The translations under genes and the position numbers were made by a program. Positions 3,811 to 58,299 of a DNA stretch of 64,000 nucleotides are shown piece after piece (the stretch's first letter is position 1; every line of letters begins with the position of its first letter). The notes under the pieces were generated by a model. That model had not been told where the DNA came from. It was given only the letters and a program-made list of their open reading frames with translations, and did not search any database. The stretch covers positions 3,168-67,167 of the forward strand of contig JACPKU010000004.1 in the NCBI GenBank assembly GCA_016186915.1, written 5' to 3'. Source of the stretch: Candidatus Doudnabacteria bacterium. GTDB taxonomy: Bacteria > Patescibacteriota > Doudnabacteria > UBA920 > O2-02-FULL-48-8.

Positions 3811-3873
3811 TTAATAATTTCTAGTGAGCAAAGCTACTACAAACTACTCACTACTAACTACCAACTAATTTAT

Positions 3874-4245: not shown

Positions 4246-5114
4246 TGTACTATTACATCGTTGATCCGAAAAATCTAAGTCAACGGCAATTTGAAAGAGT
4301 ACAGAACCAGCTGTACTCTTCTCTTTCTGAATTCAGAATCAGCGGCGAAGTTTCCAGAGTAACCGCGCTCCGGTCTGCGGCTCAGCTGGTTCTGTCAGCC
4401 GAGAGCCATAGAGCGAAAAATATTATTGCGGTAGGAAGTGACGATACACTGCACGACGTAGTTAACGCTGTGCCTGATGATGAAGAAATAACGATTGGGT
4501 TCATCCCTCTTCAACCTTCTAGTTTTGGCAATATGCTGGGCATAAACTCGATATCCAGTGCTGTAAAAACCATAGCCGCCCGCCGCACCATACTGCTTGA
4601 CCTTGGCAGTGTAATACAGACAAAAGTCAACCAGAAAACTTTGTTTTTGAAAAACCTGACTTTTGGCATGGAATTAAAAAGTGATTTAAACAAAGGCAAC
4701 TTATACAGCTTTAAACTTATCAGCCAACTATTTAACCTACCTAACATTGAAGTAAATTTTATAGGCGATAGAAAATTTCAAGGGACAAATACGCTGTTGG
4801 GCGGTGTTGTTTTCAACAGCCGAGATCAAGCATGCGGAAGCAGTTTTGTAAATCCGGCTGACGGCGTGCTTGATGTGCTGCTCCTGCCAAAACTAAGCAA
4901 GTATCAAATTTTCAAATATCGCAAACATCTTTTGAGTGAATGTTTGGAAAACATCCCTGGCGTTTCTATCTTACATTTAAAAAAATTGGAAATTTTAGGA
5001 CCAGAGGGATTGACGCTTCGAGTAGGCACACGCGTATTAGCCAAGGCTCCGGCCACTATCCAAATCGAACCTCGGAAACTTAAAATCATCGCCGGCCGAG
5101 AACGAATGTTTTAA
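4245..5114 (+). CDS. Diacylglycerol/lipid kinase catalytic-domain protein (YegS-like)
   Basis: DAGK_cat-like N-terminus (NIIAVGSDDTLHDVVNAV) and overall length. Confidence 0.5.
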   Translation: MYYYIVDPKNLSQRQFERVQNQLYSSLSEFRISGEVSRVTALRSAAQLVLSAESHRAKNIIAVGSDDTLHDVVNAVPDDEEITIGFIPLQPSSFGNMLGINSISSAVKTIAARRTILLDLGSVIQTKVNQKTLFLKNLTFGMELKSDLNKGNLYSFKLISQLFNLPNIEVNFIGDRKFQGTNTLLGGVVFNSRDQACGSSFVNPADGVLDVLLLPKLSKYQIFKYRKHLLSECLENIPGVSILHLKKLEILGPEGLTLRVGTRVLAKAPATIQIEPRKLKIIAGRERMF

Positions 5115-5115
5115 A

Positions 5116-5146
5116 GAAAAAATCCGACTATTTAGTCGGATTTTTT
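5116..5146. terminator. Bidirectional rho-independent terminator hairpin
   Basis: aaaaaatccgactatttagtcggatttttt: a perfect stem flanked by A-run and T-run, lying between convergent transcription units. Confidence 0.6.
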
Positions 5147-5168
5147 CTTTGTCGAACGTTAGACGTTC

Positions 5169-5242
5169 TGGAGCGGGTAACGGGAATTGAACCCGTCTCT
5201 CCTCCTTGGCAAGGAGGTGTAATACCGCTATACCATACCCGC
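5169..5242 (-). tRNA. tRNA-Gly (anticodon GCC)
   Basis: Cloverleaf on the minus strand. Anticodon stem-loop cctcc-ttGCCaa-ggagg, T-arm GGTTCAATTCC, encoded CCA. Confidence 0.85.
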
Positions 5243-5247
5243 ATTTT

Positions 5248-5324
5248 TGGTGCCGGAGATCAGAATCGAACTGATGACACGTCGCTCTTCAGGCGACTGC
5301 TCTACCACTGAGCTACTCCGGCGC
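5248..5324 (-). tRNA. tRNA-Phe (anticodon GAA)
   Basis: Minus-strand sequence gcgccggagtagctcagtggtagagcagtcgcctGAAgagcgac...ttcgattc...ccggcacca. Anticodon loop cuGAAga. Confidence 0.85.
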
Positions 5325-6005
5325 AATCCTTGGTTTTTGCAAGTATGCGTAACCTATTAACTTATCCTGCTCCAACGCGATCTTTATTTTAAAATACTTT
5401 CGACTCAAAAACAAGAGGTCTTTTCTGTGATACATCACATTAAAAATTTTTCTAGAATCTCCTTTCGTATATTCAAGATTTGATACTCCAACCCCCTTAT
5501 GAACAGAGCCTGTTAATCCGTAAAGTCTTTTCAATTCTGTCCTAAGCCATTTAATAAAATCGGGACTCGCAGAAGCAAATGATGTTTTAAATCCAAAACT
5601 TTTAGGCCATCTTTTATCCCAGAATGTATAAAATGTTCCATCTCCGTCAAATAAACCTCTTAAAAAGTCAGGAAAATATCTGTCAGGTATATCAATTTGT
5701 TTTATCGTCTTTGACTTTGCAACAGTTAAACCTATAGAATTTAAAAACTGATAAAATATTTTATCTCCAAACTGTACGAATAAATATTTCTTGTCAGTTT
5801 CTCCGCCTCTTACATGAGCGATGGTTTTATTACTTATTAAAAGGGCTCTCTTAAACTTATTAATCAATTCGATTTCTTTAGAACTAAATCCAATATGACG
5901 CTGATCTTTATGCAACCATCCGTCCGAAGTAATAAGACCGATTGCATAAGCAAAGTCCGAACTCCATTCAATTTTAACTTTTTGTTTAAATCGGCGGCTA
6001 ATCAT
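5313..6005 (-). CDS. LAGLIDADG family homing endonuclease (double-motif, free-standing)
   Basis: Two LAGLIDADG-type motifs about 100 aa apart: AYAIGLITSDGW and FLRGLFDGDGT. Located between tRNA-Phe and tRNA-Val. Confidence 0.7.
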   Translation of the reverse strand: MISRRFKQKVKIEWSSDFAYAIGLITSDGWLHKDQRHIGFSSKEIELINKFKRALLISNKTIAHVRGGETDKKYLFVQFGDKIFYQFLNSIGLTVAKSKTIKQIDIPDRYFPDFLRGLFDGDGTFYTFWDKRWPKSFGFKTSFASASPDFIKWLRTELKRLYGLTGSVHKGVGVSNLEYTKGDSRKIFNVMYHRKDLLFLSRKYFKIKIALEQDKLIGYAYLQKPRIAPE

Positions 6006-17919: not shown

Positions 17920-17956
17920 TTGGACAACCATAGAACGATAGGTGGGTAGTTGTCCA
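17919..17956. repeat. Conserved intergenic hairpin element, copy 1 (TTGACAAC..GATAGGTG..GTTGTCAA family)
   Basis: ttggacaaccatagaacgataggtgggtagttgtccaa, between convergent ruvC and tyrS. Nearly identical elements lie at 41713 and 54144. Confidence 0.6.
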
Positions 17957-17968
17957 AAGTAGATAAGA

Positions 17969-36163: not shown

Positions 36164-36715
36164 ATGAATGAACACAAATTTAATCCTGAAAAACAACCAG
36201 CCGCGAAAGCCGGTCAAATATTTGATGCTTCCCCTGAAGATGCCAGAGCAATTGCTGTCATCAGAAAACGAGGATGGGAAACCACATATGTAGATGAGGA
36301 GAAAGGAATAACGCGAGCAGATATTGATAGTCGGGGGATGGACGATGAAGACCGAATACAAAGGCACCAAGAGAGATTAAAAGAACCAAGCGAAAACGCG
36401 CATACCTGGGTCGTGAAAGTTGAGAGCCAGGTCGTGGGATTTTGCGAAGCGGTAAGCGGAGATTATAATGAAATTAAAGCAGTTTACATCCTACCAGAAT
36501 TTCAATCACAGGGCCATGGTCAGCAGCTTATGCAACAAGCCATAGAATGGATAGGACGAGATAAGGATATTTATCTGGACGTGGTGGACTTCAATACCCG
36601 AGCCATAGAGCTGTATAAGAGATTAGGTTTTGAGCTGACAGATAAAAGAGAGTTCGTGCAGTTTAAATCGGGCAAATTTATGCAAGTATTGGTAATGATA
36701 AAAAGACATGACTAA
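36164..36715 (+). CDS. GNAT family N-acetyltransferase
   Basis: Acetyl-CoA binding motif region QSQGHGQQLMQQAIEW. Confidence 0.7.
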   Translation: MNEHKFNPEKQPAAKAGQIFDASPEDARAIAVIRKRGWETTYVDEEKGITRADIDSRGMDDEDRIQRHQERLKEPSENAHTWVVKVESQVVGFCEAVSGDYNEIKAVYILPEFQSQGHGQQLMQQAIEWIGRDKDIYLDVVDFNTRAIELYKRLGFELTDKREFVQFKSGKFMQVLVMIKRHD

Positions 36716-37616
36716 GGAATTTCAGAAAAAATTGATTCTGATTGATGGACACGCGTTACTACACCGCGCTTATCACGCCCTTCCGGAAATGAACGGGCCG
36801 GACGGATTCCCCACGGGTGCGATCTTTGGGTTTTTATCAATGCTGTTTAAAGCGCTTGCAGACATTAAGCCTACCCATGCGTTAGTGACTTTTGATGTGC
36901 CCGGGCCGACTTTTCGTGATAAATTGGCCGCGGATTATAAAGCTACTAGAAAACCCACGCCAGATGACCTGACTGCGCAGCTCCCTAAATTGAAGGAAAT
37001 TTTAGAAGCCTTGGAAATTCCCGTCTATGAAAAAGCTGGGTATGAGGCAGATGATTTACTAGGAATCATTTCTCACAAAACCCCTAAGGATGTTTTAAAT
37101 ATTATTGTCACTGGCGATTTGGATATGTTGCAGTTGATTAACAGCAACACCCAAGTTTATCGGTTTAAAATTGGCTTTTCTGACATTCAAGTTTTTGATG
37201 AAAATAAAATGCTGGAGATTTATGGGCTGAAACCTTCGCAGTGGGTGGACTACAAAGCCATTCGAGGCGATACCTCGGACAATATTCCCGGGGTCAAAGG
37301 CATTGGGGAAAAGGGTGCTATGGATTTAATCAAAACCTTTGGCAGTTTGGATGGCGTGTATGCCGCGGCAGAATCAGGCAGCAGTAAGATTAAGCCGGCC
37401 ACTTTGAAAAAATTATTAGCTGACAAAAACAGCGCTTATTTGTCCCAAAAACTGGCGAACATTGATCGAAAAGGTGATTTGTCCGCCGAAGGCGGATCCG
37501 CCTTCGGCGGAGATTTTTACTTTGAACAATGCAAGCTTGGCAACTATAATAAAGACAACGTGATCAAACTCCTGCACGGTCTTGGCATCAAGGCCTTAAC
37601 TAACCGTCTACCCTAA
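36708..37616 (+). CDS. polA: DNA polymerase I, 5'-3' exonuclease (FEN) domain ORF
   Basis: LILIDGHALLHRAYHAL..., the metal-binding acidic clusters, and a helix-hairpin-helix. It ends at a TAA at 37614. Confidence 0.8.
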   Translation: MTKEFQKKLILIDGHALLHRAYHALPEMNGPDGFPTGAIFGFLSMLFKALADIKPTHALVTFDVPGPTFRDKLAADYKATRKPTPDDLTAQLPKLKEILEALEIPVYEKAGYEADDLLGIISHKTPKDVLNIIVTGDLDMLQLINSNTQVYRFKIGFSDIQVFDENKMLEIYGLKPSQWVDYKAIRGDTSDNIPGVKGIGEKGAMDLIKTFGSLDGVYAAAESGSSKIKPATLKKLLADKNSAYLSQKLANIDRKGDLSAEGGSAFGGDFYFEQCKLGNYNKDNVIKLLHGLGIKALTNRLP

Positions 37617-37669: not shown

Positions 37670-39178
37670 TTGGTGAGATTGCTTCGGCGCAAGCTGCTCG
37701 CAAAGACAAGAACTATGATTATCAAGAACAAAGAACAAGCAATAATCGCAGGCTATCTTCTCAACCCGGGCCAAAGGCATTACCAAGTCGGCGGTCCGGC
37801 ATCTTGGAAGCACTTATTTAGTAAGCTTAGAGTCAAAAAGCTGCTGAAAATATTCGAAGAGATTGAATTGCCACTGATGCCAGTCTTGGCCAAAATGGAA
37901 AAAAGAGGTATTAAACTTGATCTCAAACAGCTGCGACAGTTGAGCAAAAAATTAACCAGCCGGATAGACAAGCTGACCAAACAAATTTATCGCCAAGCCG
38001 GCAAAAAGTTTAATGTTGCTTCTCCGATTCAACTGCGGGATGTGTTGTTTGAGCACTTGAAGATTCCAACAGAAAACTTGCGCAAAACCGGCAAAACCAA
38101 AGCTTTGTCCACGGCGGCCACAGAACTGGAAAAGTTGCGGGAATTGCACCCGATTATTGATTTGATTTTGGAATATCGAGAACTGACCAAGCTGAAATCC
38201 ACTTATGTCGATGCCTTGCCGGAACTGGTGGGGGCGGACGGCAGATTGCATACCAAATACAGTCAGACGGTGGCGGCCACGGGGAGGCTTTCTTCCTCTG
38301 ATCCCAATTTACAAAACATCCCAATTCGTACCGAGCTTGGCAACCAGGTGCGCAAAGCTTTTGTGGCAGAAAAGGGATTTGTCTTAGCTTCTCTGGATTA
38401 TTCCCAAATTGAACTGCGCATTGCCGCCACCTTATCAGGCGATAAAGAAATGATCAAGATTTTCTCCGCCGGAGGCGGATCCGCCTTTGGCGGAAAAGAC
38501 GGCGATTTTCACGCCTCCACCGCTTCGAGAATTTTTGACACTCCTGAGTCAAAAGTAACACCCAGACAGCGCCGGGACGCCAAGACCATCAATTTCAGTG
38601 TGCTTTACGGCGTGTCGGCTTTTGGCTTATCCTCCCGCTCTGAAATGAGCCAAGCCGAGGCCCGGGATTATATCAACAAATATTATGAGGTGTTTAAAGA
38701 TTTAAAAAAATATATAGACACCACAATCAAACAAGCGCATGAAGATGAATTTGTGACTAATCCTTTGGGACGGATCAGAAATTTTGCCGAGATTAATTCG
38801 CCTGTTTATCCAATCCGAGCTGCGGCAGAGCGCGCGGCGTTTAATATGCCGCTCCAATCTTTGGCCGCTGACATCATGAAAATGGCCATGATTCGTATAG
38901 ATGAATTTTTGCAAAATTCATCTATCTCTGATTTAATCTCCCCCTCGGGGGGAGATGCCGCCAAAGGCGACAGAGAGGGGAAAACTGCTGTAAACGACGA
39001 GTGTCGCTTACTCCTGTCAGTGCATGATGAATTGGTGTTTGAAATTAAAAAAGGCAAAGAAAAACAATACTTGCCGAAAATCAAAAAAATTATGGAAACG
39101 GTTTATCAATTATCAGTGCCAGTAACGGTGGATGTAAAAGTGGGAAAGAACTGGATGGAGATGAAAGAATTGGAATAG
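37670..39178 (+). CDS. polA: DNA polymerase I polymerase domain ORF, in a different frame from the upstream exo ORF
   Basis: Pol A motifs DYSQIELRI (motif A), RRDAKTINFSVLYG (motif B) and HDELVFE (motif C). It starts in the vestigial 3'-5' exo region (IIAGYLLNPG). The frame is open back to 37604 and overlaps the upstream ORF end. Confidence 0.8.
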   Translation: MVRLLRRKLLAKTRTMIIKNKEQAIIAGYLLNPGQRHYQVGGPASWKHLFSKLRVKKLLKIFEEIELPLMPVLAKMEKRGIKLDLKQLRQLSKKLTSRIDKLTKQIYRQAGKKFNVASPIQLRDVLFEHLKIPTENLRKTGKTKALSTAATELEKLRELHPIIDLILEYRELTKLKSTYVDALPELVGADGRLHTKYSQTVAATGRLSSSDPNLQNIPIRTELGNQVRKAFVAEKGFVLASLDYSQIELRIAATLSGDKEMIKIFSAGGGSAFGGKDGDFHASTASRIFDTPESKVTPRQRRDAKTINFSVLYGVSAFGLSSRSEMSQAEARDYINKYYEVFKDLKKYIDTTIKQAHEDEFVTNPLGRIRNFAEINSPVYPIRAAAERAAFNMPLQSLAADIMKMAMIRIDEFLQNSSISDLISPSGGDAAKGDREGKTAVNDECRLLLSVHDELVFEIKKGKEKQYLPKIKKIMETVYQLSVPVTVDVKVGKNWMEMKELE

Positions 39179-39482: not shown

Positions 39483-39629
39483 ATATTTAGTGAGTAGTTA
39501 GTAGTTTGTAGTGAGTAGAAAACAAGTAAAATAAGATCCAGCTAAGTCTAACAAAAGATAGGTGACAAATCAAGAGGCGGAGGGGGGCTGAAAGTTGATG
39601 GTTCAGCCCCCTAACTTGGCAGTCATGGT

Positions 39630-41614: not shown

Positions 41615-41712
41615 CTTCAATGGGCACGCCCTGTTTGTTTACAGGACACGGCCCCGTTTTTTTATTTCAACTTGTACTTCTCCGTCCTTTGCTACTACCG
41701 GATGATCACGAT

Positions 41713-41748
41713 TTGACAACCACCATGCGATAGGTGGGTGGTTGTCAA
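41713..41748. repeat. Conserved intergenic hairpin element, copy 2
   Basis: ttgacaaccaccatgcgataggtgggtggttgtcaa. Confidence 0.6.
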
Positions 41749-41788
41749 GTTAGATGACTTTGAATTTTTAGAGATTTTAATACATCAC

Positions 41789-43808
41789 ATCACTTATGTC
41801 TTTTCATCCGTTGTTTGTCGCGGATGCTGGCGATTTGATCGCGAAGGCCGGCGGCTTGTTCAAAGTCCAGATTTCTGGCCGCCAAGTCCATTTGATCCCG
41901 CAATTCTTCGATCAGGTACGCGACTTCCTGCCGGGTCATTTTGTTTAAGTCGATCCGTGATCCGTGATCCGTGATCCGTGACTCCTCTTTCTTACCCGCA
42001 AGACGTGATTCTTTCACTGCTTTTTCTATGCCCTTGGGAGTAATGCCATACTTTTTATTATAGTCTTCCTGAATCTTGCGTCGCCGTTCAACTTCGGCAA
42101 TAGCCCGTTGCATAGAACCCGTGATTTTGTCTGCATACATAATCACATGGCCTTCGATGTGGCGGGCTGCCCGGCCCATGGTTTGAATGAGTGAAGTGTC
42201 GGAGCGCAGGAACCCTTCTTTGTCAGCATCCAGGATCGCCACCAGCGACACTTCTGGCAGATCCAGACCTTCGCGCAGAAGATTGATGCCCACCACCACG
42301 TCATAAATGCCTAATCTTAGATCGCGCAGAATCTCTAAGCGTTCCAAGGTGTCCACGTCAGAGTGCAGGTAATGCACCTTGATGTTGTATTCAGTCAAAT
42401 ACTGCGCCAGTTCCTCTGCCGTGTTTTTGGTTAAGGTGGTGACCAGCACGCGTTGTTTTCCGCCGGCAGGCAGGTTCACTCTTTTCTGGATTTCTTCCAT
42501 CAAATCATCCACTTGGTTTTTCGTTGGTCTGACTTCTATCTTGGGATCCAAAAGCCCGGTCGGGCGGATAAGTTGCTGCGCCACTTGTTTGGAAATTTTT
42601 AACTCCCGGTCTTTTACCGGGGTGGCCGACACAAATATGGTTTGGCTAATTCGTTTTTCAAACTCTTCAAATTTTAAAGGCCGATTGTCAGCGGCAGAAG
42701 GCAGGCGAAACCCATAATCAATCAAAGTTTGTTTGCGGGACTTGTCTCCCAAATACATGCTCCCAATTTGCGGCAGGGTCATGTGCGATTCGTCTATAAA
42801 TAACAGAAACTCATCTGGAAAATAATCCAAAAGCGTGGAAGGCGGCTCACCGGGAGAGCGAAAATCCATGTGCCGCGAGTAGTTTTCAATGCCGTTGACA
42901 TAACCGGTTTCCAGCATCATCTCAATGTCAAAGTTCGTGCGCTGTTCAATGCGCTGGGCTTCGATCGCCCTGTCTTTACTTTTGAAAAATTTGACTTGTT
43001 TTTTTAGCTCGTCGCGGATGTTGTCTACGGCCTTAAACAATTTTTCTTTGGTGGTGACAAAGTGTTTGGCCGGGAAGACGGTCAGATGTTGAATCGAACC
43101 TAGATCGCTGCCGGTGAGAGGATCGTGAATGGATATTTTTTCGATTTCATCCCCGAAGAAGTTGACTCGATAGATTTTGTCCTCGGAAGCCGGGATCAGT
43201 TCAACAGTGTCGCCGCGGACGCGGAAATTGCCCCGCTCAAGATTGACATCGTTGCGGATGAATTGCAGGTCAGTGAGTTTGCGCAAGAGCTTGTCTCGTT
43301 TGCTGCTTGCCCCAACTTTTAGAGGGACAGACAGGTCCAGATAATCACCCGGACTGCCCAAGCCGTAAATGCAGGAGACCGAAGCCACGATTAAGACATC
43401 CGAGCGAGACAGCAGGCTTTGCGTGGCCGCGTTTCTTAACTTGTCAATTTCTTCATTAATTTCCGTTTCCTTTTCGATGTAGGTATCGGAGCGCGGAATA
43501 TAGGCCTCGGGCTGGTAGTAATCATAGTAGGAGACGAAGTAGTGCACGGCGTTGTCCGGGAAGAAATCCTGAAATTCGCTGGCTAATTGGGCAGCTAAGG
43601 TTTTGTTATGCGAAATGACCAGAGTCGGCTTATTAATTTTTTCCACCACATTGGCCATAGTAAAAGTCTTCCCACTACCCGTCACGCCCAAAAGCGTCTG
43701 GTAGCGGAATTTTTTATGCAACCCTGAAACCAATTTTTCTATGGCCTGCGACTGGTCGCCAGCCGGTTTGAAATTTGAACGCAGCTTGAAATGCATAGCA
43801 ACCTTCAT
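41789..43808 (-). CDS. uvrB: Excinuclease ABC subunit B
   Basis: [12 protein letters not shown] Walker A, helicase motifs, and a C-terminal UVR domain ([13 protein letters not shown]). Confidence 0.95.
41952..41979. repeat. Tandem heptamer (GATCCGT)x4 in frame inside uvrB
   Basis: gatccgtgatccgtgatccgtgatccgt. On the minus strand it encodes TDHGSRI. Confidence 0.8.
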
Positions 43809-54141: not shown

Positions 54142-54143
54142 TT

Positions 54144-54179
54144 TTGACAACTACCATGCGATAGGTGGGTAGTTGTCAA
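54144..54179. repeat. Conserved intergenic hairpin element, copy 3
   Basis: ttgacaactaccatgcgataggtgggtagttgtcaa. Confidence 0.6.
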
Positions 54180-54322
54180 GGGGGAAAATCGGGGTGTTTT
54201 AAAAGAGGCTTACGGCTCTTTTTCTTTTTAGTGGAGCAGATTTGATCAGGCGCCTGCTCCGATTCGCCGTCTTCGGCGAGGCGGAAAAACCTGCTTTCGC
54301 TTTAGTTAGCCATAAATAAGGA

Positions 54323-56968
<2,646 letters not shown>

Positions 56969-56996
56969 CGGGATCTTTCGATTTCGCTTCGCTTCA

Positions 56997-57038
56997 CTCA
57001 GGGATCAAGCTATGTTGTTGCCTGAGCTTGTCGAAGGC
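56997..57038. repeat. ~42-bp hairpin repeat, copy I (intergenic)
   Basis: ctcagggatcaagctatgttgttgcctgagcttgtcgaaggc. Confidence 0.7.
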
Positions 57039-57189
57039 TAAAAAATATAAAAAGCACCATAGGTGCTTAGAGTCCAGTCTTTGACCGGACGGTACCATCT
57101 TAAGCTTTCACTTAATCAATTGCTTTAACGGGCAATCTCCGGTGAGTTCTACTAACTGCGAAGCAGTTACCCCGAGCTTAGTCGATCAA

Positions 57190-58299
57190 TCAGGCAAGAG
57201 CAAGGTTCGGGTCAGCGACGAATGTCTTAGTGGGTAGTTTGCTCCGACGCTTCGGTCGGAGTCTCGACCTGACAATTTCAGCGTCGGGATAGTGGGTAGT
57301 GAGTAGTTTGTAATGAGCAGCAAGACCAATCATTGCGGCATTGTCTGTGCAGTATTTAAGCGGGGGGATACTGACTGAGAGCTGATAGCTCTTAGCTAAT
57401 AGCTTATAGCGAGCACGCAGGAGGTCGTTGGCTGCAACACCACCGCCGAGCATAATAGTTTTGGGTTGGTATTTTTTAATCGCTTGTTCTGTTTTGGCAA
57501 TCAGGACATCCACGATGGCTTGCTGGACGGAGGCGGCTAAGTTAGCTTTTAGCTTCCCTCTCTGTCCATTCCCGCGAAAGCGGGAATCTAATTTTTGGAC
57601 CTCATATAAAACAGCGGTTTTGAGTCCGGAAAAACTGAAATTTAAATCATCAGAATTAATCATCGGACGAGGAAACTTAAAAGCATGAGGATTGCCGTTT
57701 TTTGCAAGCTTGCTTAAATGCGGCCCACCAGGATATGGTAGTCCCAACAGTCTTGCGGTTTTATCAAATGCCTCGCCTGCAGCATCATCTACGGTTTCGC
57801 CAATGATTTTGTATTGCCCGTGTCCTCGCATCAGTACTAACATAGTATGCCCGCCGGAGACAATCAAGATAATCGCGGGAAATTTGACCCTTCGACTACG
57901 CTCAGGGATCAAACTTTTATGTTGCCTGAGCTTGTCGAAGGCAACGTTGGCATAGATGTGCGCCTCGAGATGATTAATCGGTAAAACCGGTTTGTTCAAG
58001 GTTAAGCCTAAAGTTTTGGCAGTGTCTACGCCCACCATAAGAGACGTCATCAGCCCTGGCCCTTTTGTTACTGCGATATAGTCAATTTCCGCAAGTTTGG
58101 TTTTGGCTTTCTTGAGGGCCAGGTTAATGGTTGGGATGATAGAAAGGACGTGTTCTCTGGCTGCCACTTCCGGCACTACCCCGCCGTATTTCAGGTGGGT
58201 CTTGGCCTGCGAGGCCAAGATATTGGATTTGATTTGGCCGTTAACGATTATGGCTGCGCCAGTTTCATCACAACTGGTTTCAAGGGCGAGTATTGTCAT
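57190..58299 (-). CDS. tsaD: tRNA N6-adenosine threonylcarbamoyltransferase TsaD (Kae1/Gcp)
   Basis: MTILALETSCDETGAAI, the His-His metal motif region, and SGGVAAN. It carries an internal repeat-derived insertion and a C-terminal extension. Confidence 0.9.
   Translation of the reverse strand: MTILALETSCDETGAAIIVNGQIKSNILASQAKTHLKYGGVVPEVAAREHVLSIIPTINLALKKAKTKLAEIDYIAVTKGPGLMTSLMVGVDTAKTLGLTLNKPVLPINHLEAHIYANVAFDKLRQHKSLIPERSRRVKFPAIILIVSGGHTMLVLMRGHGQYKIIGETVDDAAGEAFDKTARLLGLPYPGGPHLSKLAKNGNPHAFKFPRPMINSDDLNFSFSGLKTAVLYEVQKLDSRFRGNGQRGKLKANLAASVQQAIVDVLIAKTEQAIKKYQPKTIMLGGGVAANDLLRARYKLLAKSYQLSVSIPPLKYCTDNAAMIGLAAHYKLLTTHYPDAEIVRSRLRPKRRSKLPTKTFVADPNLALA
57901..57942. repeat. ~42-bp hairpin repeat, copy II (in frame inside tsaD)
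   Basis: ctcagggatcaaacttttatgttgcctgagcttgtcgaaggc. The minus strand encodes FDKLRQHKSLIPER. Confidence 0.7.

Follow-up and report, generated by a model that had tools for sequence, protein, structure and literature searches.

A dimer of hairpin repeats in frame within tsaD of a Candidatus Doudnabacteria bacterium, probably a translated palindromic element

The tsaD gene of a Candidatus Doudnabacteria bacterium contains an in-frame dimer of two inverted hairpin units, and a sister dimer lies in the spacer between tsaD and valS. Both were identified in a 64,000 nt stretch of contig JACPKU010000004.1 (NCBI GenBank assembly GCA_016186915.1, positions 3,168 to 67,167 of the forward strand), which is referred to here as the window. 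The tsaD dimer is most probably a selfish palindromic element resembling repetitive extragenic palindromic sequences (REPs) and bacterial interspersed mosaic elements (BIMEs), translated with the gene and tolerated as a surface loop of TsaD. Under this explanation an inverted-unit dimer would have been fixed in frame in a hypervariable TsaD loop, with the metal-binding HxxxH helix on one side and the SGGHT strand on the other. It would simply be translated, adding a net ∼14 residues, and would be neutral for TsaD. Short-range transposition or template-switch repair would have produced one copy with the other as its source, or both with a nearby master as theirs.

A repeat search of the window identified a 47 nt direct repeat at 56992-57038 and 57896-57942 with 87% identity. 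The first-pass annotation of this DNA had placed the two copies at 56997..57038 and 57901..57942, and both are present there along with the internal stem it described, CTCAGG(G)...(G)CCTGAG. Its identical tail is also real, but the tail comprises 23 nt (TGTTGCCTGAGCTTGTCGAAGGC) rather than 21. Allowing up to 3 mismatches, the 21-mer TTGCCTGAGCTTGTCGAAGGC was found in the window at 57018-57038 and 57922-57942 only. The chance expectation is 0.02 matches, and two copies appeared in 0/100 shuffles. Seven independent public assemblies contain the identical tsaD gene. Because the tsaD copy was present in 7/7 of these, and the spacer copy in 5/5 of those extending that far, the repeat is not an artefact of assembly.

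Each copy is a dimer of two inverted hairpin units of ∼27 nt apiece. The tsaD dimer is 55–62 nt long; folded as single-stranded DNA, 57884-57945 has a predicted energy of -15.7 kcal/mol (z -4.7), and 0/200 shuffles folded as well. Covariance model R1 recovered the right unit (57920-57946, 35.9 bits, E 9e-7) and, on the minus strand, the diverged left unit (57884-57911, 16.8 bits, E 0.07), which was also found by a fuzzy search. The two units are separated by 8 nt. The right unit of the sister dimer was recovered by R1 as well (57016-57042, 34.8 bits), and this dimer folds less well (z -2.0 and -1.2). It ends 17-29 nt upstream of the valS ATG in a spacer of 221 nt, and it has stop codons in 3/3 minus-strand frames. 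A promoter scan identified no promoter in the spacer copy.

In the frame of tsaD, on the minus strand, 42 nt of the repeat encode AFDKLRQHKSLIPE, residues 120-133. The first-pass annotation had recognized the copy as coding in frame, but its peptide dropped an A and added an R. It had positioned the peptide between the HxEAH block and the SGGHT motif, in agreement with HLEAH at residues 110-114 and SGGHT at residues 148-152. Alignment A1 comprised this protein and 31 TsaD orthologues, the closest of which are 64-74% identical to it. Among these 32 sequences the FDKLR peptide was found in this protein only. The closest orthologues have either a short loop at the site or unrelated inserts, and the stretch is missing from the syntenic orthologue of a relative with the same rpoC-Gmad2-valS-tsaD gene order (locus L247). 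The region between HIYAN and FP(A/S)L is hypervariable, with a simplest state of 3-12 residues. Alignment to solved TsaDs of Salmonella and Thermotoga leaves a gap of 13 residues at precisely the insert site. By sequence comparison, then, the stretch in TsaD is an insertion. Residues invariant across the alignment are all present in the protein. An AlphaFold model (mean predicted local distance difference test score, pLDDT, 84; predicted template modelling score, pTM, 0.82) has only three segments with pLDDT <50. Two of them, 125-129 and 131-135, are inside this insert, and the third, 338-353, is exactly another in-frame insert described below. In the tsaD orientation the dimer has a single stop-free frame, which is the frame actually used. 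This fits selection that keeps only those insertions that can be read through.

Wider searches showed that the unit is far from unique. The exact 21-mer was identified in at least 119 GTDB stretches, and the matches listed include Chloroflexota, Patescibacteria (Uhrbacteria, Kazan, Parcubacteria), Proteobacteria, Bacteroidota, Pirellulales and KSB1. A 17-mer core, CCTGAGCTTGTCGAAGG, was identified in at least 120 IMG/VR contigs. Units are ∼27 nt long, with a 4-7 bp stem of variable sequence that closes a nearly invariant loop of 11-12 nt, TGAGCYTGTCGAA (that is, T-GAGCYTGTCGA-A). The base just outside the 17-mer is paired in 95% of contexts versus 70% of shuffled ones, with C-G, T-A and G-C swaps. 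Outside the selection imposed by the search pattern, 203 distinct units matching GAGCNNGTCGA were found in the loci, compared with ∼14 expected by chance. Their four stem pairs are formed in 73-79% versus 42-69% when shuffled, and compensatory changes are frequent. In alignment A3 (72 sequences) 83% of cells pair versus 55% when shuffled, a value reached by 0/500 shuffles; these sequences were pre-selected for pairing, and the unbiased figure is that for the 203 units. The conserved part is therefore the loop, closed by a stem of free sequence. The covarying stem and invariant loop suggest, by analogy with HUH/Y1 transposases acting on REPs, that a folded single strand may be recognized.

The arrangement of the window copies recurs elsewhere. 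Three loci from the candidate phyla radiation (CPR; L168, L169 and L225) contain CCCTTCGACTNCGCTCAGGG followed after 7-12 nt by TTGCCTGAGCTTGTCGAAGGC, as in the window. A metagenome scan for this composite returned 40 contigs, among which the subfamily of the source organism itself (ATCAA spacer) was not represented. Some genomes and contigs are rich in copies, and the unit is present on at least 17 contigs of one Chloroflexota metagenome-assembled genome. Alternating arrays of inverted units were observed in L266, L268, L270 and L282; one CPR population has such arrays, with up to 4 copies on an 8-kb contig (4 on L270), an organization resembling BIMEs. As a separate observation, at 1265-1335 of L132 (Candidatus Uhrbacteria, JACPHT010000008) a long-stemmed unit, GTAAAGTTA-TTGCCT…AGGC-TG-TAACTTTAC, appears to lie inside the loop of another unit, whose two halves read TCCTTCGACTTCG and CTCCGCTCAGGA. 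The arrangement resembles a nested insertion, a hint that hairpin loops may serve as target sites.

The unit is also found in frame in other CPR genes. The 21-mer occurs in long open reading frames (ORFs) of low-GC CPR contigs whose identities were confirmed with Pfam: a UvrD/PD-(D/E)XK helicase (L168, reading PSTSSGN), LeuRS (L236, reading SLRQAQA) and GrpE (L225 and the related contigs L276, L280 and L281). DprA (L137) is probably another such case, its unit lying in an N-terminal stretch outside the Pfam match. Together the in-frame cases use all three reading frames. In the four GrpE contigs the dimer is in frame at the same position (…RAC(R/Q)(E/I)MPSTSSGNN…SPERAERVEGWAE) with a variable inter-unit spacer, which implies that in-frame copies can persist through speciation.

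Table 1. Repeat units, hairpins and genes of the tsaD-valS region, in window coordinates.
Feature	Position	Strand	Description
tsaD	57190..58299	-	369 aa, intact; family-invariant residues all kept; Pfam TsaD E 9e-95; PDB homologues E 1e-77
valS	54323..56968	-	downstream gene; spacer dimer located in its 5' leader; has in-frame hairpin inserts of its own (ORF list, ValS alignment with L247, folds)
Palindromic repeat dimer inside tsaD	57884..57945		minus-strand translation (V)AFDKLRQHKSLIPERSRR(VK), residues 119-139
Complete right unit in tsaD	57921..57945	+	GTTGCCT, loop GAGCTTGTCGA, AGGCAAC; 7-bp stem, 11-nt loop
Inverted, diverged partner (left) unit in tsaD	57884..57912	-	TTGATCCCT, loop GAGCGTAGTCGA, AGGGTCAA; 12-nt loop variant
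Sister dimer in tsaD-valS spacer	56985..57041 (approx.)		right unit intact except for outer stem; left unit degenerate (CGCTTCGCTTCACTCAGGG)
Truncated third unit	57170..57185	+	CCCC-GAGCTTAGTCGA, 4 nt downstream of tsaD stop; window aligned with L121 and L126 (alignment A2)
Terminator-like hairpin with T-run	57052..57068	-	between tsaD and the spacer dimer; terminator scan
Second in-frame hairpin insert of tsaD	57556..57591	-	LDSRFRGNGQRG; core ATTCCCGCGAAAGCGGGAAT at 57568-57587; fold z -4.1
Third in-frame hairpin insert of tsaD	57241..57288	-	PDAEIVRSRLRPKRRS, residues 338-353, 48 nt; fold z -3.5

A broader proposal goes beyond the window, and we regard it as possible though doubtful. The unit may be an undescribed pan-bacterial structured element, present in at least six phyla and in viral contigs, whose loop TGAGCYTGTCGAA would be recognized by a conserved factor, either a host protein or a transposase or recombinase acting on single-stranded DNA. 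Essential proteins such as TsaD, ValS, LeuRS, GrpE and PolA would have become recurrent landing sites as it spread into coding regions in streamlined CPR genomes. If this is true, loop insertions in CPR proteomes would have in this element a general source that has not been documented so far.

The relationship between the two window copies bears on how they arose. They share runs of 23 and 12 identical bases, including subfamily-specific flanks (AGGGATCAA, GTTGCC). They are also the only strong units in 64 kb and are just 904 nt apart; by our calculation the probability that two random positions in 64 kb fall within that distance is ∼0.03. On these grounds the copies are probably related by short-range copying. 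That they are instead independent insertions from distant masters is unlikely. Such an origin would account for the 8 nt inter-unit spacer differing at 4/8 positions, for the substantial differences between the left units and for the dispersal of the family in other genomes, but the shared flanks and the close spacing speak against it.

It is quite improbable that the repeat is a functional cis-regulatory RNA or DNA structure, controlling stability, attenuation or translation of the tsaD-valS mRNA, and that the tsaD copy has been kept for such a function. A near-invariant loop with a stem that covaries across phyla is the signature of a recognized structure, the spacer copy is situated between a terminator-like hairpin and the valS ATG, and the coding copy retains an unusually good palindrome. 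However, nothing comparable is present at the orthologous positions in L247. Inserts in the same TsaD loop of orthologues P0087, P0024, P0042 and P0007 are, at the DNA level, perfect hairpins unrelated to this one, and the insert-free P0002 has none. It is chiefly because of this absence in L247 and these unrelated hairpins that a regulatory role is disfavoured. In addition, the left unit of the spacer copy is degenerate, and members of the family are found within genes and between them, in many unrelated contexts. Rfam contains no family that covers the unit at gathering or permissive thresholds. Representative members gave only sub-threshold Rfam matches (miRNA precursors and AaHKsRNA41, 21-36 bits against a gathering threshold of 97), as is typical of any long hairpin.

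The peptide could also be an ancestral or adaptive lineage-specific TsaD loop, with the spacer copy a decayed fragment of a duplicated tsaD. The minus strand of the spacer copy does read AFDKLRQQHSLIPE followed by a stop, which is nearly the TsaD peptide. We nevertheless consider this origin highly improbable, given that the similarity ends with the 47 nt repeat and neither flank has homology to tsaD, that the sequence is part of a hairpin family that spans phyla and is mostly non-coding, and that the peptide occurs in no other aligned TsaD and is modelled there with very low confidence. Least credible of all is an insert that is never translated, through removal from the mRNA or through ribosomal bypassing as in T4 gene 60 and the byp elements of yeast mitochondria, which are bypassed rather than translated: the hairpin is stable and of the size bypassed in those systems, but the insert is in frame and stop-free, as are the units in the helicase, LeuRS and GrpE, which selection for read-through predicts and bypassing does not require.

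Returning to a translated REP/BIME-like element, several observations weigh against it. The nearest insert-free orthologue is only 69-74% identical to this TsaD, so the age and exact boundaries of the insertion are uncertain. Covariance-model units number only three in the window (35.9, 34.8 and 16.8 bits), all within 1.1 kb. Of the two copies, the coding one forms the better palindrome (z -4.7, vs -2.0 for the intergenic one), which simple neutral decay does not explain. No target-site duplication or flanking direct repeat was found at either window copy. No recurrent transposase was found among the ORFs of 239 loci, for which a few kb around each copy were examined. All-against-all clustering of the 7,501 ORFs in these loci returned phage structural genes and common families only, and a Pfam scan beside the repeat arrays identified methyltransferase, PIN/DUF5615 and glycosyltransferase genes and no transposase.

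A close precedent for palindromic repeats within genes is provided by the Rickettsia palindromic elements (RPEs; Ogata et al. 2000, 2002). In the summary given by PMC10969869, RPEs are palindromic repeats inserted in frame in unrelated housekeeping genes, are translated and were judged compatible with protein folding. They also occur between genes, comprise several families per reduced genome of a host-dependent bacterium, are ∼100-150 bp long and are restricted to Rickettsia. On that description, the tsaD dimer and the helicase, LeuRS and GrpE units resemble RPEs in being in frame, stop-free and located at tolerant positions of housekeeping genes. They differ in that the tsaD dimer is 55-62 nt, the unit is common to many phyla and the host belongs to the CPR; the distinction was drawn from the description of RPEs.

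REPs, BIMEs and REPINs are imperfect palindromes of 20-40 nt that form head-to-head or tail-to-tail dimers and clusters and are mostly intergenic (PMC3733652). The window unit is likewise an imperfect palindrome of ∼27 nt, and each window copy is an inverted dimer. In several phyla, REPs with a GTAG or CGTC tag also occur within genes, often uvr genes and polA, and their dimers there code for 20-30 residues; no transposase is known for the CGTC type (Di Nocera et al. 2013; PMC3733652). Neither tag is present in the window copies, in which the bases before GCCTTCGAC are CGTT (tsaD) and TTTA (spacer); only a subset of family members read GTAG-GCCTTCGAC or GTAGGCCTTCGAC. The present family also departs from REPs in that the loop is conserved and the stem variable. 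Unlike GTAG REPs and REPINs, it was not accompanied by a REP-associated tyrosine transposase (RAYT, an IS200/IS605-type Y1 transposase) in the few kb examined around each copy. [quoted passage not shown] The inverted units described here could act as terminal inverted repeats, but neither a target-site duplication nor a parent insertion sequence was found, and the tsaD dimer is at the bottom of the MITE size range. Coding palindromes in the mitochondria of Nematomorpha are reported to be long and perfect inverted repeats (PMC6649704). The tsaD dimer is like these, as there described, and like the yeast byps in being hairpin DNA within a protein-coding gene, with different genomes and mechanisms.

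The DNA strings of the unit and its encoded peptides had no relevant match in the searchable literature, and no description of the unit or of in-frame palindromic repeats in CPR bacteria was found there, subscription journals being outside its coverage. A protein-database search with three open-frame peptides returned 0 candidates; P0001 was missed likewise, and the search is hence uninformative. A translated element in tsaD would extend selfish DNA inside protein-coding genes, a phenomenon best known from Rickettsia, to the CPR. Many odd lineage-specific insertions and junk-like peptides (FDKLR, PSTSSG, LRQAQ, PELVEG, LSLSKA) in CPR and metagenomic proteins would then be explicable as translated repeats. 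Such peptides also occur among database 'hypothetical proteins'. Alignments, phylogenies and structure predictions should be made with hairpin-encoded stretches masked, and these stretches may serve to mark insertion-tolerant loops of proteins. The loop that is invariant across phyla, with neither an Rfam entry nor a match in the searchable literature, points to a factor that recognizes it.

The proposal of the first-pass annotation that tsaD has been invaded repeatedly is borne out by two more hairpin-forming in-frame inserts (Table 1). One 64-kb window contains three in-frame hairpin inserts in TsaD, at least three in ValS and two in a putative PolA. The second TsaD insert consists of extra residues relative to orthologues and PDB structures and is present in one copy in the window. 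It reads TGTC-C-ATTCCCGCGAAAGCGGGAAT-CTA, with an 8-bp stem starting AT, a 4-nt loop, a TGTC tag and a 3-nt tail. These features agree with how the text of PMC3733652 describes CGTC-1 REPs (dRS3 / RPE-6 class). Its exact 20-mer was identified in at least 120 IMG/VR contigs. The third insert forms the hairpin CTCCGAC-CGAAGC-GTCGGAG and is missing from 31/31 aligned orthologues. What had been annotated as a C-terminal extension of tsaD carrying an ACTAC leader motif is in fact this internal 16-residue insert near the C-terminus. The ACTAC-like strings beside it encode KLLTTHY and KLPTKTF; because orthologue P0003 has the same peptides (KLQTTRYKLPTKSF), the strings look like ancestral codons and not an invading leader motif. 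A 14-nt direct repeat around the third insert was considered as a target-site duplication and rejected, since the insert-free P0003 has the same flanking peptides.

Immediately downstream of tsaD, public assemblies of the same organism contain 73 extra nt after the tsaD stop, which complete the truncated third unit to …GGGG. R1 scored the completed unit at 16 bits (L121, 3763-3790). The difference is a strain-level indel (window 57186-57190 vs L121 3694-3766), and no second copy of the 73 nt was found in the window. A T-box leader for valS was rejected for the spacer, which gave no Rfam match even at E up to 10. The tsaD-valS spacer of L247 is 884 nt long, and a 194-aa reverse-transcriptase (RVT_1) fragment lies on the opposite strand at 4995-5579, overlapping the end of tsaD. 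A 13-nt match to the loop in that spacer (5803-5815) is probably due to chance, as it is within a small ORF and has no stem.

The in-frame hairpin inserts of ValS (54686-54769, 56864-56884 and 54479-54517) are absent from the syntenic orthologue in L247. Two 10-bp hairpins encode PPQSPLILRGD…TPPLKIRGGRGEL, EAHPPWT is the translation of a degenerate GGCGGATCCGCC palindrome copy, and there is a 10-residue insert near the C-terminus. The L247 ValS has its own insert at another site, SPLKGGE…SPPNIGGARGG, which is missing from the window ValS. At ∼55223-55657 the window protein has ∼100-140 extra residues relative to L247 (881 vs 741 aa), including a CPACGG zinc-ribbon-like motif and a stretch resembling an inserted domain (…YRLRDHKFNVGDRFVFKNSG…).

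Other repeats were observed in the window. A 34-nt palindrome, TCCGCCGAAGGCGGATCCGCCTTCGGCGGA, is in frame in two adjacent ORFs, at 37478-37511 and 38461-38494. It encodes DLSAEGGSAFGG in a 5'-nuclease-like ORF (36708-37616) and IFSAGGGSAFGG in a polymerase-like ORF (37670-39178), where it directly follows the DYSQIELR motif. From their motifs we take these two ORFs to be a split DNA polymerase I. A further palindrome family, of 38 nt and reading TTTGACAAC(C/T)ACC…GGTGGGT(G/A)GTTGTCAA(G), has members at 17920-17957, 41712-41749 and 54143-54180, the last separating valS from the convergent Gmad2-like gene; the sequence may represent a further REP family or function as a bidirectional terminator. 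The heptamer GATCCGT is repeated four times in tandem at 41952-41993 and at 55803-55844, the latter in valS, where it encodes TDHGSRIT. Finally, 4-5 tandem 7-nt periods of ACTACNN are directly upstream of start codons at 3836-3867 (+ strand) and 39488-39521 (- strand), reading …AACTAATTTATATG and …ACTCACTAAATATATG. These arrays are candidates for a leader or translation-initiation motif.

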